The notes: generated by a model from the sequence alone, not told the origin. Shown: positions 2,639 to 25,536, counted from the stretch's first letter. The stretch is DNA of 26,710 nt from Verrucomicrobiota bacterium (GCA_018239705.1 JAFEGS010000001.1:1-26710), one strand, 5' to 3'. Made by a program: numbers and translations.

Positions 2639-4897
2639 TTTCTTGAAGAATTCCTCGTGATTTCGTTTTGGGAACTCGATACCATACTGCAGGCTTCTCT
2701 GATAGGCTTCCAGTGTCTTTTGAATCACAAACTGTTCATAGCTGCATAGGTCTGCCTGTCTTGTGGCTCTATCGACGATAAAATCTACAATCAGGCAGTT
2801 AAGGGGCTCACTAGCTTGAAGAGAAAAACATTGGCATGGAAGCGTTTTGAAATGGTCGAGAAGATGATTAGAAGCCTCTCGCTGCTTGTCCCCCCCTCCC
2901 CATAGCGCATAAGAGAGTAGATGGAGCAGGACGGTGGTATGAGTATCTGGGTCCTGTACTCCGGAGGTGAACTTGGTCATAGCGACTTGAGTAGGTGCAG
3001 TAATAGAGCCACAGGCATAGAGGTTCGGATTCTCTTCAATTTTTCGTAGTTTGTCTGTAGCCATCTTGAGTATGGGAGAAGTTTCTTCCCACTTGGGTAT
3101 TGTAGCCGGGAATTGCTGCTCTATTTTGGCAAGCTGCACAATGCTTTTGGAATAGCACTGGATAAAGAGATTGTGGCAGCGGCTAGATTCACACACGTCA
3201 ATAAGCTCAAAAAGGGAGACGAGAGAGCTGAGGATGTCATTTCCGAATTGGCGCTGATAGGCACTATAGAGCTCTAAAAAAGAGGGTGTATTCTTACCTA
3301 CTGCATGTATATGGTCCATGTACTGTGCATTCTTACTCAGTGCGTACAGCGCCATATCGAGCTTAAGATACGAGCGGTTCTTTGAAAAATAGAACCATTC
3401 AGTAATCTCTCGTGTAAGGTATTGTATAATGCGGGTGAGGAGCAGGCTTTCGCTTAAACGTTCTATACTCTTTTTTCTATTGCCTTGTACAATAGCAAGC
3501 CATATCTCTTCATCTCTGTTGCACTGGGTAATTACTTGCAAACCAACTCGTGAGAGCAATGTCTCGAGGCTCTTGGTAATTTTGTGATTAAATTGTAGTA
3601 GCTGCTTGTCGTCTTCTACATAGAGTAGAAGTGCCTGTGAGACTGAATGAGCAGCACTGAAGAGGGCTTGGATTTTTTTTGAGGTGTTAATGCTATTGTG
3701 GGGAATAGAAAGAAAATCGCATGTATGCCTTATGGAGGCGATAGTTTTTTCATTTGCTGTGGATATATTGGCAAAAATGTGTGAGAGGTTGAATCGGATG
3801 TCCTGAATGAAGGCTGAAAGCCGAGCTGCGTAATTGAGCCCAGTACTTGTCTGCTGTGAATGCATGATTTGATAAAAGGCTGCTCGAATGTCTTCTAAAG
3901 CCTTTTCGATGATGGAGAGAGGTCCTTCGAAATAGGCACGAAAGAGATCTTCATTTTGTGTAATTTCTGCAAATTCCTTCCCTCGGTTTTCATATAGTCC
4001 TTGTAGGCAGTCCTGCACATCTTCATCGAGGATTTGAAGATCCATTGCCAGTTTTTTCATATAATTGATGAGTGGGGCGGTTAGCTCATTTCCCCAATTT
4101 ATTATAAAATATTCTGTAACGCTTGCGCCTGTTCCAGTGCGAAAGGCAAGATCCTCTCTCAGAGATGCATTGCTGTCCGTAGCTCGCTGTTTTCTCTTCG
4201 TAGTAATATCTGGAAGTGCATCCTGCCTTGTATAATTTCGTTCCTCTGTGCTTTTAATTTCATCCAATTTACTTATAACCAATTCATTATTGATATGTTC
4301 TTTGGCTAGTTTTTCCTCTTGATCGCACTGTTCCATTTGCTCATGAATGCGCTTTATATTCTCTTTCAGGTGAGGGTCTTCCAGAGTGTGGAGGAGCAGC
4401 TTTTGCTCTTTTAATGTAGCTTTAAAAGTGTCTGTTACACGTCCTTTTTTAGCCAGTTTATCATACTCTAAAACAGATACCTTATAGAGTATTACAGCCT
4501 GTGAATAGGCTGGACTATTAAGGAGTAGTGCGAGCTGTTCTACTTTGGTTTTTATCATTTGAAGTTTCAGGCTCAAGGGAAAAAGCTGCTGCATACTTGG
4601 GCAGAGAGCCTGCAGGGGCAAAAAGGGAAGCTGTTCATAGAGTTTGCACATGTCTAAGTTGCAAGTGGTTAAAGTCTCGATGGGTGCCGCAAGTTCAGTT
4701 TTCAGCTCCTCATGCCTTTCAAGTATTCTTTTGGATGGAGCTGCGAAGGAATAGATGCTTGCTGCAATTTCATTTATATTTTTTTCTACAGCTTCTATCA
4801 ACTGATTGATTTCGTTCAACTTATTGAAAAATATTTGTTCATCTGGTGTGTCTATATCTGTTTCATTTGTCAAAAAGTAGCGAGGAGTTATTTGCAT
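2618..4897 (-). CDS. Hypothetical large helical/coiled-coil protein (paralog 2 of tandem pair)
   Basis: 759-aa ORF alignable by eye to 4863..6590; no recognisable domain. Confidence 0.8.
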   Translation of the reverse strand: MQITPRYFLTNETDIDTPDEQIFFNKLNEINQLIEAVEKNINEIAASIYSFAAPSKRILERHEELKTELAAPIETLTTCNLDMCKLYEQLPFLPLQALCPSMQQLFPLSLKLQMIKTKVEQLALLLNSPAYSQAVILYKVSVLEYDKLAKKGRVTDTFKATLKEQKLLLHTLEDPHLKENIKRIHEQMEQCDQEEKLAKEHINNELVISKLDEIKSTEERNYTRQDALPDITTKRKQRATDSNASLREDLAFRTGTGASVTEYFIINWGNELTAPLINYMKKLAMDLQILDEDVQDCLQGLYENRGKEFAEITQNEDLFRAYFEGPLSIIEKALEDIRAAFYQIMHSQQTSTGLNYAARLSAFIQDIRFNLSHIFANISTANEKTIASIRHTCDFLSIPHNSINTSKKIQALFSAAHSVSQALLLYVEDDKQLLQFNHKITKSLETLLSRVGLQVITQCNRDEEIWLAIVQGNRKKSIERLSESLLLTRIIQYLTREITEWFYFSKNRSYLKLDMALYALSKNAQYMDHIHAVGKNTPSFLELYSAYQRQFGNDILSSLVSLFELIDVCESSRCHNLFIQCYSKSIVQLAKIEQQFPATIPKWEETSPILKMATDKLRKIEENPNLYACGSITAPTQVAMTKFTSGVQDPDTHTTVLLHLLSYALWGGGDKQREASNHLLDHFKTLPCQCFSLQASEPLNCLIVDFIVDRATRQADLCSYEQFVIQKTLEAYQRSLQYGIEFPKRNHEEFFKKLNNDTI

Positions 4898-6590
4898 GAT
4901 CTTCTCCCAAATTTAAATTTTCTATTAAGTGGTTAATTTGATCGCTGGTTTCTTCGTGGTTATGTGGATAAGATTGATATAGGGCAGTAAGGGCAGGATG
5001 TTTTTTCAACCGCTTGTCAAGAAGGCTCTGATAGTCTTTTGACTCCTTACTAACCTGAAGTACGTTGTTGAGCTTGCTATTTGATGGCTTGTTTGAAAAA
5101 TAGAGCCACTCTATTATCGATTTTTCGATATATTTGAAGATTTTTCGGGAATTGCCTTTGTTAAAACCGGTTTCTTCAAACATACTCAAGAGATCATCAG
5201 AGGATATTTTTTCAAGTATCTGATTGCCAATGCGAGCGATGACTATTTCAAGGCATGAGGCAACTTTAAAATTGAATTGCGACATGCTTAGGGTATTTTT
5301 TTTATATTTGAGAAGTGCTTGTGCAGTAGCCTGTGCAGCCTGTAGGAGCGCTTTTAGCTGCCTTGAGGAGTTCTTATTTGCTTCTACTTCGGAGAGTAAT
5401 GTGAAGGTATGATTGACCGCTCTGATGACCAGTTGATTCTTTCTGTCAATATTTGAGAAGAAATAACTGGTCATGTAGGAGGTCTCTTGATTGGCGGCCA
5501 GAAGGCGAGCTGCATAGTGGAGGCCTTTTTCGATTTCCCCGCTTTGTATTAAGGTGTAGAGTGATTTGCGGATTTTTATAATGGTACATCGGTTAAAAGC
5601 GAGAGCGGTTTCTAATGGTATTTTGAGCCGCTCTTCAGGATACTCCTCGTCTGGAAAGGCTGTCCAGTTGCCATGATAGAGCATCTGCAGGGTCGCAAGG
5701 CATGTTTGTTGAATGAGCTGTAGCTCTTTTGCCTCCTCTTCCAATTGGCTCACAAGTGTATTGGTAGAATAATTTGCATATTTTGTAAGAATGCTTATAT
5801 TTATGAAATATTGTGTGGGACATAAGGTGAGCTCGTTTTTGAGCGTTATTGCTTTTGCCTCTTGCTTACGCTCATTAATATCATTTTTTATCAAGCCCTG
5901 TAAACCAGCTTTTTTAGTCTTGGAGAGAGTCAATGAAGCGCATTGCTTATCAAGTATGTCGTCGAGAGTGCAGTCTTCGATGGGTATGTCGTTTCCACAG
6001 GCAGCGTGGTAAAATTGTGTAATTTCTTCATGTACAAGCCGTATGTGATACTGTAGTCGTTGATCTAGATTGTGTAGATCTTTTGACTGAAGCGCTACAT
6101 CTTGTTTTGTAGTATTCCAAATTTTAATTAAGTTCTCTTTGTTTGTGCAGCTCTCTTGGCACTGACGGATCGTCCTCCTATATGATACGATGGATCCTGC
6201 GTATACATCACTAGAGAGCAGGAGCATTAGGCGGGTGATTTTCTCTGTTGAGAGCTCTATTTGCAGCTGTATACTGTGGATTTTCGCCATGTGTTTATGT
6301 GCGATCTCAAGAGAGAAGGGAAGAGCGCTATAAAGATTAGTAATAATGCGCGAGCATTTTTCGAGGGTAGATGAGCTATTTTGCAGCTCCTGCAGCCACT
6401 CCTTGTGCGTTGCAAATACGCTCTTTTCCGGAGCTGAGTAGGAATAGATCATCCCCCCGATTATGCCTTGCGTCTCCTTTACAGACTGCAGCTCCTTCTC
6501 AATTTCCAATAGCTGTGCTGCAAATTCGCTCTCTTCAGGCGGTGCGATATCATCTGTGGAGACAAAGTGGTAACGTGTACAGGGGTGCAT
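4863..6590 (-). CDS. Hypothetical large helical/coiled-coil protein (paralog 1 of tandem pair)
   Basis: 575-aa ORF; its start overlaps the LOG stop (TAATG); shares blocks with 2618..4897. Confidence 0.8.
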   Translation of the reverse strand: MHPCTRYHFVSTDDIAPPEESEFAAQLLEIEKELQSVKETQGIIGGMIYSYSAPEKSVFATHKEWLQELQNSSSTLEKCSRIITNLYSALPFSLEIAHKHMAKIHSIQLQIELSTEKITRLMLLLSSDVYAGSIVSYRRTIRQCQESCTNKENLIKIWNTTKQDVALQSKDLHNLDQRLQYHIRLVHEEITQFYHAACGNDIPIEDCTLDDILDKQCASLTLSKTKKAGLQGLIKNDINERKQEAKAITLKNELTLCPTQYFINISILTKYANYSTNTLVSQLEEEAKELQLIQQTCLATLQMLYHGNWTAFPDEEYPEERLKIPLETALAFNRCTIIKIRKSLYTLIQSGEIEKGLHYAARLLAANQETSYMTSYFFSNIDRKNQLVIRAVNHTFTLLSEVEANKNSSRQLKALLQAAQATAQALLKYKKNTLSMSQFNFKVASCLEIVIARIGNQILEKISSDDLLSMFEETGFNKGNSRKIFKYIEKSIIEWLYFSNKPSNSKLNNVLQVSKESKDYQSLLDKRLKKHPALTALYQSYPHNHEETSDQINHLIENLNLGEDHANNSSLLFDK

Positions 6591-7285
6591 TATATTTGTT
6601 GATCCTTTAGTAGTTTAAATCGATCGTGGTATGCGCGCTCAAGTCCATCTGCTACTTCATCTAAATCATCTGTAAGGACAAAAAGATCTAAATCACTTTG
6701 GTCGATGCAAGGTTCTTCGAGCATTGTCTCCTTTAACCATTCCACTAACCCTTGCCAGTAGCGTATCCCAATCAGGTATATTGGTACAGGCTTGATCTTC
6801 TTGGTCTGGATCAGTGTAACAGCCTCAAACAGCTCGTCCAGGGTGCCGTACCCTCCGGGAAGGAAGACAAAGCCTTCTGCATATCGTACAAACATGACCT
6901 TCCGGACAAAAAAATAGCGGAAACGAAGCTTCAACTTAGAATCGATAAAGGTATTAGGCTCTGATTCAAAGGGCAGGTCGATGACAAGCCCGCAAGAGCG
7001 TCCTTGTGCCATTTGAGCACCTTTGTTGGCAGCTTCCATGATGCTGGATCCAGCTCCTGTAATAATGCTAAAGCCCTTTTTAGCTATTTTGTAGGAGATA
7101 TCAAGCCCAATTTTGTAGTACTCATTTGTTGCCGGGAGGCGGGCTGAGCCAAAAATGGAGATGGAAGGGCCGATCATCGATAGCGTTTCAAAGCCATCGA
7201 CAAATTCAGAAATAATTCGAAATAGCCTCCACGCGTCAGTGCCTGAGGGGGGAAGAAATTCATTTGGTTGATTTGTCTCTGTCAT
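6590..7285 (-). CDS. LOG family nucleotide phosphoribohydrolase (TIGR00730-like Rossmann fold)
   Basis: Motifs SIFGSAR, ITGAG..IMEAANKGA, FRYFFVRKVMF and PGGYGTLDELFE. Confidence 0.92.
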   Translation of the reverse strand: MTETNQPNEFLPPSGTDAWRLFRIISEFVDGFETLSMIGPSISIFGSARLPATNEYYKIGLDISYKIAKKGFSIITGAGSSIMEAANKGAQMAQGRSCGLVIDLPFESEPNTFIDSKLKLRFRYFFVRKVMFVRYAEGFVFLPGGYGTLDELFEAVTLIQTKKIKPVPIYLIGIRYWQGLVEWLKETMLEEPCIDQSDLDLFVLTDDLDEVADGLERAYHDRFKLLKDQQI

Positions 7286-24051: not shown

Positions 24052-24285
24052 ATGAGTGAAAAACAAAAGAGAAATGAGCTGTGTCCCTGTGGGTCGCAGA
24101 AAAAATATAAGAAGTGCTGTGGGATGCAGAAAGCGGTGCAAAAGCAAAAAGCTTTTAGCCGGATGATAGGGCCTACAGGAGCTGCTCCCTTTGTGCAGGG
24201 GCTTACCCAGAGAGTTTTTAAGGTTCTTGGAGATGGTTCGCAAGTGAAGCAACCCAAAGATCTAGAGGGACTTAAGAAGATGTGA
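24052..24285 (+). CDS. SEC-C motif protein (77 aa)
   Basis: RNELCPCGSQKKYKKCCG; ATG 24052 avoids overlap with the divergent ttcA. Confidence 0.88.
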   Translation: MSEKQKRNELCPCGSQKKYKKCCGMQKAVQKQKAFSRMIGPTGAAPFVQGLTQRVFKVLGDGSQVKQPKDLEGLKKM

Positions 24286-24296
24286 TAGAAAATCGC

Positions 24297-24326
24297 TTGC
24301 CTGGAATAATGGATATTTGCTATAAG
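24297..24326 (+). promoter_or_regulatory. Candidate sigma70/sigma66-type promoter for tRNA-Thr/Tyr
   Basis: TTGCCT, 18-nt spacer, TATAAG with a TGn extension, 23 nt before tRNA-Thr. Confidence 0.5.
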
Positions 24327-24349
24327 TTTCAGGCGTAGCGTGATAGCAA

Positions 24350-24422
24350 GCTGACATAGCTCAATTGGTAGAGCACCCGATTTGTAATCGGACGGTTGTG
24401 GGTTCAATTCCTACTGTCAGCA
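24350..24422 (+). tRNA. tRNA-Thr (TGT)
   Basis: Acceptor GCTGACA/TGTCAGC, anticodon arm CCGA-TTTGTAA-TCGG, GGTTCAATTCC T-arm. Confidence 0.96.
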
Positions 24423-24437
24423 ATTCTTGACATGTCA

Positions 24438-24519
24438 GGGGGTGTCGCATAGCGGCAATTGCAAGGGACTGTAAATCCCTCGACTTCGGTCTCCGTTGGT
24501 TCGAGTCCAATCGCCCCCA
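24438..24519 (+). tRNA. tRNA-Tyr (GTA)
   Basis: Acceptor GGGGGTG/CGCCCCC, anticodon arm AGGGA-CTGTAAA-TCCCT, long variable arm, GGTTCGAGTCC. Confidence 0.96.
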
Positions 24520-24531
24520 TCACCATCTTTT

Positions 24532-24662
24532 GAGAGCTGTGACCTCGGGTCCAAGTACTAGGCATTAGTTTCGGCCTAGGGCATCAGGACTGCGAGAACC
24601 AAGCAATTAATCCCAAGGTTTGGGAGTGCCGACTAATATGAGGCATGGCTCTCTCTTTTTTT
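24532..24662 (+). ncRNA. Putative structured non-coding RNA of unknown class
   Basis: End-to-end stem GAGAGCTGTG-A-CCTC (24532-24546) / GAGGCATGGCTCTC (24640-24653) followed by a T-run; inner stem ATTAG-TT-TCGGC / GCCGACTAAT; hairpin TCCCAA-GGT-TTGGGA. Confidence 0.45.
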
Positions 24663-24732
24663 CATCATGTTAAATATCTGATTCCTGTACAATGAAAGTT
24701 GAAAGGATCGGGAGTTCCCGATCGGCGTCTTA

Positions 24733-24755
24733 CCTCGGTGTATACCGGGGTTTTT
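24733..24755 (+). terminator. Intrinsic terminator
   Basis: CCTCGGT-GTAT-ACCGGGG stem-loop followed by TTTTT; also lies just past the stop of the convergent gene. Confidence 0.6.
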
Positions 24756-24759
24756 CGCT

Positions 24760-25536
24760 TTAAAGGCCCTCTCTTCGTATCTCTACAACTTTAGTCGGAT
24801 CTTTCCAAAAATCGGTTTCCTCTTCAAAATCTTCCCCGCTAAGCTCTTGGTATGCTTTTTTGAGGGTTTCTCTGTCCAGAAGAATGCCTTGGCGTTGGTA
24901 ACGCTTATCTGAGCGAGTGAATTTTTTGACAGGTATAAACTTTGCGTTTTCTCTTTTTAAAAAGCGCGCAAGGCGGCGATTTATGCTTGAGAGAAATGCC
25001 CAAGTCTGCAGATTGGCGCATGGAAGGCATAGAGCTTTGCCGCCTTCGGTAAATAGATAGCTTTTTACGGGAAGCTTTTTTTCGCAAGCAGTGCACTGCG
25101 AATCTATGGTGGTCTGGATGACAACCTGTTCTGGGGGATTATGTAGTTTATCTTGGATTTTTTGCTCCTTGATTTCAAAAAGTATGGGAGAAATGTAGTG
25201 TGTGCGATAGGACTGTTCGATCTGGGGGTGGCCGCTTTTGCTGAACCGCAGCTCTTGTTTACTTTTTGAAATATATCCCGTAAACTTAGGTTTAAGCCCT
25301 TTTTCTTTTGCCCAGGCGCGAAAACACTTCATATAGAAGGAAATTTTGTTTAAATTCCCGAGAATAACGCGCTCAAGGTAGGGGATTTTTCCTTTTTTCC
25401 AGTCGAGGACTTGTTCTGGCTTAAGAAGCTTCATGCCAAGAAATACGTCGATGGGGCTTACGTAGTTTTGCTGCAACAGGGCTTCTTCAGATGCTTGAAA
25501 GACACGCTGCTGTAAACGTTTTTGGTTGTCGTGCAT
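24760..25536 (-). CDS. Hypothetical zinc-binding protein resembling the N-terminal part of DUF2293-containing proteins
   Basis: YVSPIDVFLGM, LRFSKSGHPQIEQSYRTHYISP, CTAC...CLPC and KRYQRQGILL match my recollection of that family. ATG 25536 preferred over the track start at 25638. Confidence 0.7.
   Translation of the reverse strand: MHDNQKRLQQRVFQASEEALLQQNYVSPIDVFLGMKLLKPEQVLDWKKGKIPYLERVILGNLNKISFYMKCFRAWAKEKGLKPKFTGYISKSKQELRFSKSGHPQIEQSYRTHYISPILFEIKEQKIQDKLHNPPEQVVIQTTIDSQCTACEKKLPVKSYLFTEGGKALCLPCANLQTWAFLSSINRRLARFLKRENAKFIPVKKFTRSDKRYQRQGILLDRETLKKAYQELSGEDFEEETDFWKDPTKVVEIRREGL

Follow-up and report, generated by a model that had tools for sequence, protein, structure and literature searches.

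A conserved, pseudoknotted RNA family encoded behind tRNA and tmRNA genes and its links to small genomic islets

What is encoded directly behind the tRNA-Tyr gene of a Verrucomicrobiota bacterium (GCA_018239705.1), and why does it stand there? The window, i.e., the whole stretch of DNA analyzed here (JAFEGS010000001.1:1-26710, 26,710 nucleotides), contains at positions 24532–24662 of the + strand an element which was described in an initial annotation, made from the sequence alone, as unassigned and RNA-like with two alternative folds. Comparison of the locus with its counterparts in related genomes indicates that the element is a real, conserved, and apparently undescribed pseudoknotted RNA family of ~120 nt. 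Genomes, contigs, loci, and families are designated below by G, C, L, and f numbers, respectively.

Conserved fold and distribution of the RNA family

A BLAST search of the locus against 40 relatives returned the tRNAs and one partial paralog in the window's own genome. The first covariance model was built on the core shared with this paralog, and full-length models R2 and R3 followed. No match to the core model was found in 22 other genomes of the window's family; true homologs were detected with it in other families of the same order. Covariance-model searches of ~300 genomes revealed 19 full copies in 18 genomes (~6%) belonging to 9 families of this order, with one copy per genome except for G261, which possessed two. 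The family consensus pattern was GGCATCAGAAC ... TCCCG ... CGGGAGTGCC. Closest to the window copy were three other tRNA-Tyr-linked copies (63–66% identity).

The fold was evaluated on an alignment of the 19 sequences with 30 modelled pairs; the alignment was fitted to the model for all helices except the pseudoknot. Standard pairs occupied 96.7% of cells, as compared with 39–46% when partners were slid by 1–3 columns. Compensatory double changes were found in 22 of the 30 pairs, and, together with the 19 homologous copies, they bear out the structured RNA-like element proposed initially. In the window, the family member comprises 24532–24655 and the U-run 24656–24662; its parts are as follows.

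24532..24547, + strand: 5' strand of helix P0, GAGAGCUGUG, bulged A24542, CCUC(G); partner 24639–24653
24549..24552, + strand: 5' strand of the pseudoknot, GUCC (GUUC in most relatives); partner GGAC, 24587–24590
24558..24579, + strand: hairpin P1, CUAGGC, 10-nt loop, GCCUAG (CTAGGC 24558–24563 / GCCTAG 24574–24579); present in the minimum free energy (MFE) fold
24580..24584, + strand: 5' strand of P2, GGCAU, near-invariant; partner GUGCC, 24626–24630
24587..24590, + strand: 3' strand of the pseudoknot, GGAC (GAAC in most relatives); from covariation
24591..24605, + strand: variable hairpin P2a, UGC/GCA, loop GAGAACCAA ("long type"); from the family alignment
24611..24625, + strand: hairpin P3, UCCCAA, GGU, UUGGGA (24611–24616 with 24620–24625), directly stacked on P2
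24626..24630, + strand: 3' strand of P2, GUGCC; from covariation
24631..24638, + strand: single-stranded joiner GACUAAUA, family consensus roughly NAYCACAUU; from the family alignment
24639..24653, + strand: 3' strand of P0; from the MFE fold and covariation
24654..24662, + strand: U-tract UCUUUUUUU, forming with P0 an intrinsic-terminator-like 3' end; from the sequence

Across the family, P0 consists of 7–10 bp, a conserved bulged A (kept in 18 of 19 sequences), and a further 4–5 bp, with covariation in 10 of its 11 modelled pairs. In the window, this helix comprises 14 bp: the outer part pairs G24532–G24541 with C24644–C24653 (10 bp, including wobbles U38–G47 and G39–U46, last two digits given), and the inner part pairs C24543–C24546 with G24640–G24643. 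All five modelled pairs of P1 covary. P2 (GGCAU/GUGCC) is nearly invariant, and its closing U-G wobble was found in 16 of 19 sequences. The loop of P2a with AACCAAGC is conserved in 8 of 19 sequences, the remaining members having short hairpins. P3, of the UCCCG/CGGGA type and stacked on P2, demonstrated covariation in three of five modelled pairs, with UCC/GGA being invariant. Approximately 22 bases are invariant or near-invariant, mostly in P2, the first P3 pairs, and the pseudoknot (e.g., GGCAU, AUCC, GGA, GCC).

The 4-bp pseudoknot (24549–24552/24587–24590 in the window) was not seen in the initial annotation. It joins GUUC, just after P0, with GAAC, just after the 5' strand of P2; 97.4% of its cells pair, and it was absent from every covariance model used for the alignment. 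Three of the four pairs show compensatory changes, which affect independent lineages: the window and G079 have GUCC/GGAC (U-A to C-G), G249 has GCUC/GAGC (again U-A to C-G, in the adjacent pair), and G096 has AUUC/GAAU (G-C to A-U). An alternative helix suggested by RNAalifold, pairing GGUU with the 3' joiner, was rejected: only 79.5% of its cells were paired, and it conflicts with the better-supported pseudoknot. In the family alignment, G-U wobbles are common and A-C mismatches are rare; together with the U-G pair kept in 16 of 19 sequences, this argues that the RNA of the + strand is the structure under selection.

All the components listed initially (the 14-bp end-to-end stem with a bulge and G-U pairs, the T-run, the 6-bp hairpin, and CTAGGC/GCCTAG) are present in the sequence. 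The two alternative folds, however, were not confirmed: covariation supports a single fold including the supposedly competing hairpin, which is P1, and the inner 10-bp stem with which it was thought to compete has no comparative support. By the covariation evidence, the element has one conserved fold, and the CTAGGC/GCCTAG hairpin is part of it. Regarding folding energy, for which a comparison with shuffles had been proposed, the + strand (MFE −46.7 kcal/mol) was moderately better (z = −2.69), yet 4 of 200 shuffles were as good; the z value of the − strand was −1.22. The window fold alone is thus only moderately better than chance, and comparative data are the decisive support.

Rfam (4227 families) contained no family other than tRNA matching 24300–24800, whether at gathering thresholds or at E ≤ 10, and at eight homologous loci only tRNA and tmRNA (transfer-messenger RNA) were matched at E ≤ 1. 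This agrees with the initial annotation, in which no signature of signal recognition particle (SRP) RNA, RNase P, tmRNA, or riboswitches was recognized. No paper describing the RNA was found in a limited full-text literature search. The sequence pattern GCATCAGGACTGC..AAGCAA gave only chance matches on genome, metagenome, and viral contigs; this pattern was based on the rare GGAC variant of the window. The consensus pattern was not matched on viral contigs, and no match was found by blastn against plasmids and phages.

The initial annotation had also considered a compact 6S-like RNA, i.e., a mimic of an open promoter that would bind RNA polymerase. Both RNAs are small and have a long closing helix. 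RF00013 was matched neither in 24300–24800 at E ≤ 10 nor elsewhere in the genome, nor in 30 relatives. A recognised 6S RNA is thus missing from the order as sampled (31 genomes), which speaks for the idea; these bacteria may be devoid of 6S RNA or possess a form that escapes the model. However, 6S RNA is a rod of ~180 nt with a large central bubble, whereas the present RNA, with ~120 nt, is built of P0, three inner hairpins, P2, and the pseudoknot, so that a multi-helix pseudoknotted junction stands in place of the bubble. It had no RF00013 score and was found in only ~6% of the searched genomes (none of 27 in f35), unlike an RNA with a housekeeping role. The idea is contradicted by both fold and distribution, and we regard a 6S-like function as exceedingly improbable.

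The distribution of the RNA is uneven. It was present in 1 of 23 genomes of the window's family, in 8 of 41 genomes of f31, in 3 of 8 genomes of f37, and in none of the 27 genomes of f35. Within a single genus, G205 possessed the RNA and its congener G130 did not. The tRNA pair located upstream in the window is conserved in the window's family, though 22 of the 23 genomes are without the RNA. In the RNA tree, the copies clustered by tRNA type, not by host family, with local supports of 0.65–0.98, which are modest on 120 nt. As the window's genome encodes chlamydial histone Hc1 and the order includes a family of 1.0–1.2 Mb genomes without the RNA (0 of 27), we infer that the host is an environmental chlamydia and the order is Chlamydiae-like.

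Genomic context and predicted expression

In the window, the element is located 12 nt 3' of tRNA-Tyr on the same strand, i.e., in the placement of a tRNA-Tyr trailer as far as context alone is concerned. The upstream unit comprises the following features.

24282..24310, + strand: candidate sigma-70-like promoter for tRNA-Thr and tRNA-Tyr (GTGATA-17-AATAAT, second hexamer preceded by TG); a consensus pattern match only, ~0.9 such sites being expected by chance in the region
24350..24422, + strand: tRNA-Thr (UGU); ARAGORN and Rfam RF00005 (71.6 bits)
24438..24519, + strand: tRNA-Tyr (GUA); ARAGORN and Rfam
24520..24531, + strand: U-rich 12-nt spacer UCACCAUCUUUU between tRNA-Tyr and the RNA; from its sequence, a presumed processing site

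In every case, the RNA is co-directional with the upstream gene. Thirteen of 19 copies are located on the same strand as, and mostly 1–21 nt after, genes of tRNA-Asn, tRNA-Tyr, tRNA-Met, tmRNA, or att-type 3' fragments. Full tRNA-Asn precedes the RNA in G115, G127, G136, and G278 (gap of 1–8 nt) and in G065 (gap of 160 nt); tRNA-Thr followed by tRNA-Tyr in the window and G205 (12–13 nt); tRNA-Met in G220 (13 nt); and tmRNA, confirmed by Rfam with 145.6 bits, in G096 (21 nt). Fragments of the 3' part were found upstream in further genomes: of tRNA-Asn in G063, G103, and at both loci of G261 (G261a and G261b), of tRNA-Tyr in G255 and G249, and of a tRNA-Met-like gene in G034. Nothing recognisable was detected upstream in G079, G247, G250, and G265. 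G065 and G096 belong to one genus, and the RNA is behind tRNA-Asn in the former and behind tmRNA in the latter. The homologs behind tRNA-Tyr with covariation, for which the initial annotation had proposed to search, were thus found in G205 and, after fragments, in G255 and G249.

The gap to an intact tRNA, being mostly 1–21 nt, leaves no room for a promoter, so the spacer is taken to be promoter-free. Two loci are arranged differently. In G065, a terminator is located upstream of the RNA, followed by a sigma-70-like promoter (TTGTTT-17-TATGCT), and in G079, which has no upstream tRNA, a sigma-70-like promoter (TTGACG-17-TATACT) precedes the RNA.

P0 and the U-run resemble an intrinsic terminator in having a G+C-rich stem of 14 bp followed by UCUUUUUUU; a T-run ≤6 nt after P0 is present in ~16 of 19 family members. 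The loop is not short: it is occupied by the conserved structured core of 92 nt (24548–24639), and the simple consensus scanner applied here misses this feature because its loop limit is 8 nt. On the 5' side, a run of at least four T immediately before P0 was found in ~11 of 19 members.

These data argue for a transcribed RNA gene that would use a tRNA or tmRNA promoter where possible and end at its own P0/U-run terminator. The co-transcription with tRNAs suggested initially is, judging by the anatomy of the locus only (same strand, gap of 12 nt, own stem and U-run), the most likely arrangement. In the window, the RNA would have no promoter of its own and would be the last cistron of the tRNA-Thr/tRNA-Tyr unit. 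Its 5' end would be freed by a cut of the RNase Z or RNase E type in the tRNA 3' trailer, within the 12-nt U-rich spacer, and its 3' end would be set by P0 and the U-run, acting as the predicted terminator of the whole unit.

The 5' end could also be produced by the RNA itself, if it were a self-cleaving ribozyme of a new class cutting near its own 5' end and releasing the upstream tRNA or tmRNA. Small ribozymes are typically compact and pseudoknotted and are often tied to mobile DNA. The compact pseudoknotted core, the invariant junction bases, and the position behind RNAs that need 3' processing are in line with this possibility; however, no ribozyme family of Rfam was matched, the spacer before P0 is not conserved, and the copies of G065 and G079, with promoters of their own, have nothing upstream to release. 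The order of strands (pseudoknot 5', hairpin, P2 5', pseudoknot 3', two hairpins, P2 3') also speaks against it, since we take it to be unlike the hepatitis delta virus-like, twister, pistol, and hatchet folds. Self-cleavage thus appears very unlikely.

Regarding the neighbouring genes, the window, G127, G136, and G096 have a convergent gene after the RNA, and G115, G065, G063, and G034 a co-directional one. The downstream DNA is unrelated in nearly all loci, and the cargo behind the element is variable. The search for a conserved neighbour protein was unsuccessful; a small open reading frame (ORF) was common to G065 and G115 only.

A second small RNA candidate without an Rfam match was noticed directly downstream of the element (24669–24760, +). 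It contains a −10-like TACAAT (24688–24693), an 8-bp hairpin (24707–24723), and an intrinsic terminator (24732–24755). Its sequence is ~90% identical in G017 and G006, which represent two other genera, and 80% identical in G028 from another family, with compensatory changes in the terminator stem. In other genomes, this candidate is unlinked to the pseudoknotted RNA.

Islets at tRNA genes and rival explanations

In two genomes, the RNA gene was found within a segment bounded by direct repeats. In G205, the full tRNA-Tyr and the RNA are followed by genes of an ankyrin protein, a DUF3298 protein, and a HepT/MNT toxin–antitoxin pair, and a 49-nt repeat of the 3' part of tRNA-Tyr (100% identical) is located 3.8 kb downstream. 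In G065, tRNA-Asn has its own terminator and is followed by the RNA, here preceded by a separate promoter, and then by a small ORF and AbiEii/AbiEi; a 43-nt repeat (97.7%) located 2.4 kb downstream covers the 3' part of the tRNA together with the tRNA's own terminator. No integrase or recombinase was encoded between the repeats in either G205 or G065. By these repeats, the RNA is the first gene inside an integrase-less segment in both genomes.

The right end of the islet, GTGTGTGGA..AACCG, abuts a tRNA-Tyr fragment on its left in G205, G255, G249, and a contig from run X26. The latter, originating from a near-identical strain, matches window positions 24469–24573 with 2 differences, and its upstream DNA is unrelated. 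Judging by this junction, the 3' part of tRNA-Tyr from 24469 on is an island attachment site in the near-identical strain. The shared right end and the X26 match suggest that the same islet family stacks at tRNA-Tyr in the close relative of the window organism. Islet membership also fits the unrelated downstream DNA, the patchiness at the genus level, the differing stable-RNA genes within a genus, and the tree following the tRNA type. The RNA gene does not belong to the core genome. In G205 and G065, and presumably also in the window, it opens, on the tRNA side, a small islet that has no integrase, is located in the 3' part of the tRNA gene, and carries toxin–antitoxin and other accessory cargo.

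Taken together with the context described above, this leads to the following proposal. A promoter-less islet RNA gene would be read through from the tRNA promoter, released by tRNA processing, and ended at P0 and the U-run, so that integration of the islet behind a stable-RNA promoter would switch the RNA on. The terminator could shield the downstream DNA and cargo from the strong tRNA promoter. The core of P1, P2, P2a, and P3, tied by the pseudoknot as covariation indicates, may serve as a binding platform for a partner, most likely a protein, and the RNA would act in trans. As a whole, this proposal could be right or wrong with about equal probability. An extension of it, which we consider unlikely, would make the RNA the functional heart of a protein-poor mobile islet, positioned right at the attachment site and produced only after landing behind a tRNA or tmRNA promoter: a switch or ribonucleoprotein that reports the integrated state, stabilises it, or controls the cargo, or a ribozyme that re-creates the tRNA 3' end.

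A number of observations weigh against the proposal. Mobility of the islets is deduced from direct repeats only, as the islets carry no integrase; integrase matches in G063, G115, G127, and G065 are located elsewhere or in an island that separates the tRNA from the RNA. In G115, G127, G278, and G220, the 11–21 kb downstream contained no repeat of the tRNA 3' part. As for the window copy, its contig stops 2 kb after the element, too early to reveal islet membership. Matches in public runs are DNA contigs only; they cover the tRNAs and, of the element, its first 42 nt (to 24573). A structured insert of 85 nt inside a terminator hairpin is unusual, termination being a prediction. Lastly, no gene is conserved beside the RNA, and no partner protein or ligand is pointed to.

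In part, these observations suit a native chromosomal gene, i.e., a dispensable accessory RNA of the host, ancestrally placed behind the tRNA and needing tRNA-type transcription and processing, with islands inserted in between that would not carry the RNA along. G063 provides such a layout: behind the full tRNA-Asn come a tyrosine integrase and an island of 9.7 kb, and after these a tRNA-Asn fragment and the RNA, an order compatible with a native flank and equally with islets accreted in tandem. Similarly, the seven copies behind a tRNA fragment (G063, G103, G261a, G261b, G255, G249, and G034) and the X26 contig could represent the host flank at attR. Upstream synteny is common to the window and G205 across two families, the TtcA-like and SEC-C genes being orthologous. 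With no bounding repeat at the four loci mentioned and the early end of the window contig, a native gene stays a serious rival. However, it is at odds with the repeat-bounded segments of G205 and G065 that have the RNA inside, with the four different stable-RNA genes upstream (two of them within a single genus), with the 22 of 23 genomes in the window's family that lack the RNA despite the conserved tRNA pair, and with the tree that follows tRNA type instead of host family. We regard the native gene as possible but rather doubtful.

Another explanation retains the islet and denies the RNA any function in trans: the islet would supply merely a cis-acting end module, namely a terminator or insulator with a nuclease-resistant trailer fold, needed for correct termination and maturation of the rebuilt tRNA. 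From the tRNA to the genes that follow, P0 with the U-run is the sole feature resembling a terminator, and an element integrating into a tRNA displaces the native downstream signals, as reflected by the position of the native terminator of G065 in the repeat. For this purpose, however, a simple hairpin would suffice, and ~22 invariant or near-invariant bases, the pseudoknot, and three inner helices have been kept across 9 families. Moreover, the RNA has its own promoter in G065, as also in G079, where the role of a tRNA terminator is superfluous. A module acting only in cis is, in our opinion, quite unlikely.

Remnants of the RNA gene were found as well. The partial copy in the window's genome (G000:C17:4135-4212; L022:336-413, −) is 78 nt long and 79% identical, with compensatory differences. 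It covers model positions 22–97, without P0 and with a weakened pseudoknot, extends over the stop codon of a 156+ aa orphan ORF, and is convergent with an AbiEi/AbiEii-like pair; the AbiE pairs of contig C17 and G065 are just 24% identical. In G034 (L087), the last 90 nt of the RNA at its 3' end, U-run included (1386–1474), are repeated 850 nt downstream (2236–2325; 93%), and the repeat surrounds a HigB/HigA-like toxin–antitoxin cassette, which looks like cassette insertion or exchange with the RNA gene as an anchor. The copy in G103 is truncated. From these three remnants, the RNA gene sits in recombination-prone DNA.

The G034 repeat around the cassette, the partial copy beside the AbiE pair, and the variable cargo would also be explained by a recombination site acting at the DNA level, as folded single-stranded DNA or as protein-binding inverted repeats for cassette capture, like integron attC. 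Against this explanation, G-U wobbles, one of them nearly invariant, are kept on one strand only, the U-run is on that same strand, and the element always points the same way as the RNA gene upstream. It has no associated recombinase, and the pseudoknot and conserved single-stranded bases are typical of RNA. A site of this kind is highly improbable.

Several other identities were tried and rejected. A riboswitch or cis-regulatory leader was dismissed as no known aptamer family was matched and the downstream gene is often convergent; SRP RNA, as a normal one is encoded elsewhere in the genome (contig C618); and bacterial Y RNA, as the TROVE domain (PF05731) is absent from G000, G063, G115, G127, and G065. 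The TCTTTT on both sides, which might be taken for the target-site duplication of a miniature inverted-repeat transposable element, represents low-complexity T-runs, which flank many copies, and the genome has only a single full copy besides the partial one. A derivation of P0 from the tRNA 3' end was rejected, the two being dissimilar. A guide resembling bridge RNA was rejected because the P1 and P2a loops show no dependence on tRNA type. Duplexes with the hctA 5' region, predicted for this RNA and for its small RNA neighbour, were no better than those of shuffles.

Further elements were observed at or near these tRNA genes. In G205 (L123, oriented positions 3967–6809), a gene of a 516-aa large serine recombinase is located just outside the repeat of the tRNA-Tyr 3' part, which it overlaps with its 3' end, and the next gene encodes a DUF927 protein; the two genes probably represent another mobile element that has stacked at this tRNA. 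A dispersed repeat of ~170 nt (L098, ~1224–1396 in G205; 70–78% identity) has ~40 copies in the congener G130, and one copy is located 100–300 nt downstream of the RNA in G205. In RNA-less relatives (L007, L008, L014, L017, and L020), long near-perfect palindromes with a conserved loop of the CCGTAC...GTACTGTC type directly follow tRNA-Tyr, representing a different tRNA-flank element. An insert type starting with repeated TTACGCAAATTTTACGCAC-like words was found after tRNA-Tyr at L113 (G130), L012, L019, L021, and L017; such words may serve another island family as arm-type recombinase sites.

Significance and comparison with known systems

To our knowledge, almost no non-coding RNAs have been described for environmental chlamydiae. 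The present family, with its well-supported pseudoknotted fold, is in no catalogue; it would be new at the level of the RNA family and fold only, as RNAs from tRNA trailers have been known before. Its placement behind tRNA and tmRNA at the boundary of toxin–antitoxin islets links an RNA gene to classic sites of island integration and offers a handle on the organisation, expression, and perhaps movement of accessory DNA in hard-to-study intracellular bacteria. If islets or the formation of tRNA ends need the RNA, this would be a new mechanism; otherwise, the RNA is a marker for chlamydial tRNA-linked islets.

Among the precedents, the RtT RNA of the E. coli tyrT operon (RF00391), reportedly described by Bosl and Kersten in 1991, is said to be processed from the tRNA primary transcript and to have no clear function. 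The RNA considered here resembles it as a small structured RNA directly behind tRNA-Tyr. However, Rfam searches gave no RF00391 match to it. RtT RNA derives from enterobacterial tandem repeat units, whereas the present RNA is single-copy, pseudoknotted, and chlamydial and, unlike RtT, was also found behind tRNA-Asn, tRNA-Met, and tmRNA. Another functional RNA cut from the trailer of a tRNA operon, 3'ETS-leuZ, is short, ends at the operon terminator with a simple hairpin, and acts as an Hfq-dependent sponge. The trailer position and the terminator end are alike; the present RNA, in contrast, has a fold of 120 nt with five helices and a pseudoknot, and no base-pairing targets are pointed to.

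Regarding the genomic neighbourhood, we know of no conserved structured RNA described as the att-proximal signature gene of islands integrating into tRNA or tmRNA genes or of integrase-less cis-mobilisable elements. Such islands are recognized by their att sites and recombinases, and an RNA gene has no part in their definition. The segments described here nevertheless resemble them in their location at 3' ends of tRNA and tmRNA genes with direct repeats (G205 and G065), as well as in tandem accretion, toxin–antitoxin cargo, and patchy distribution.

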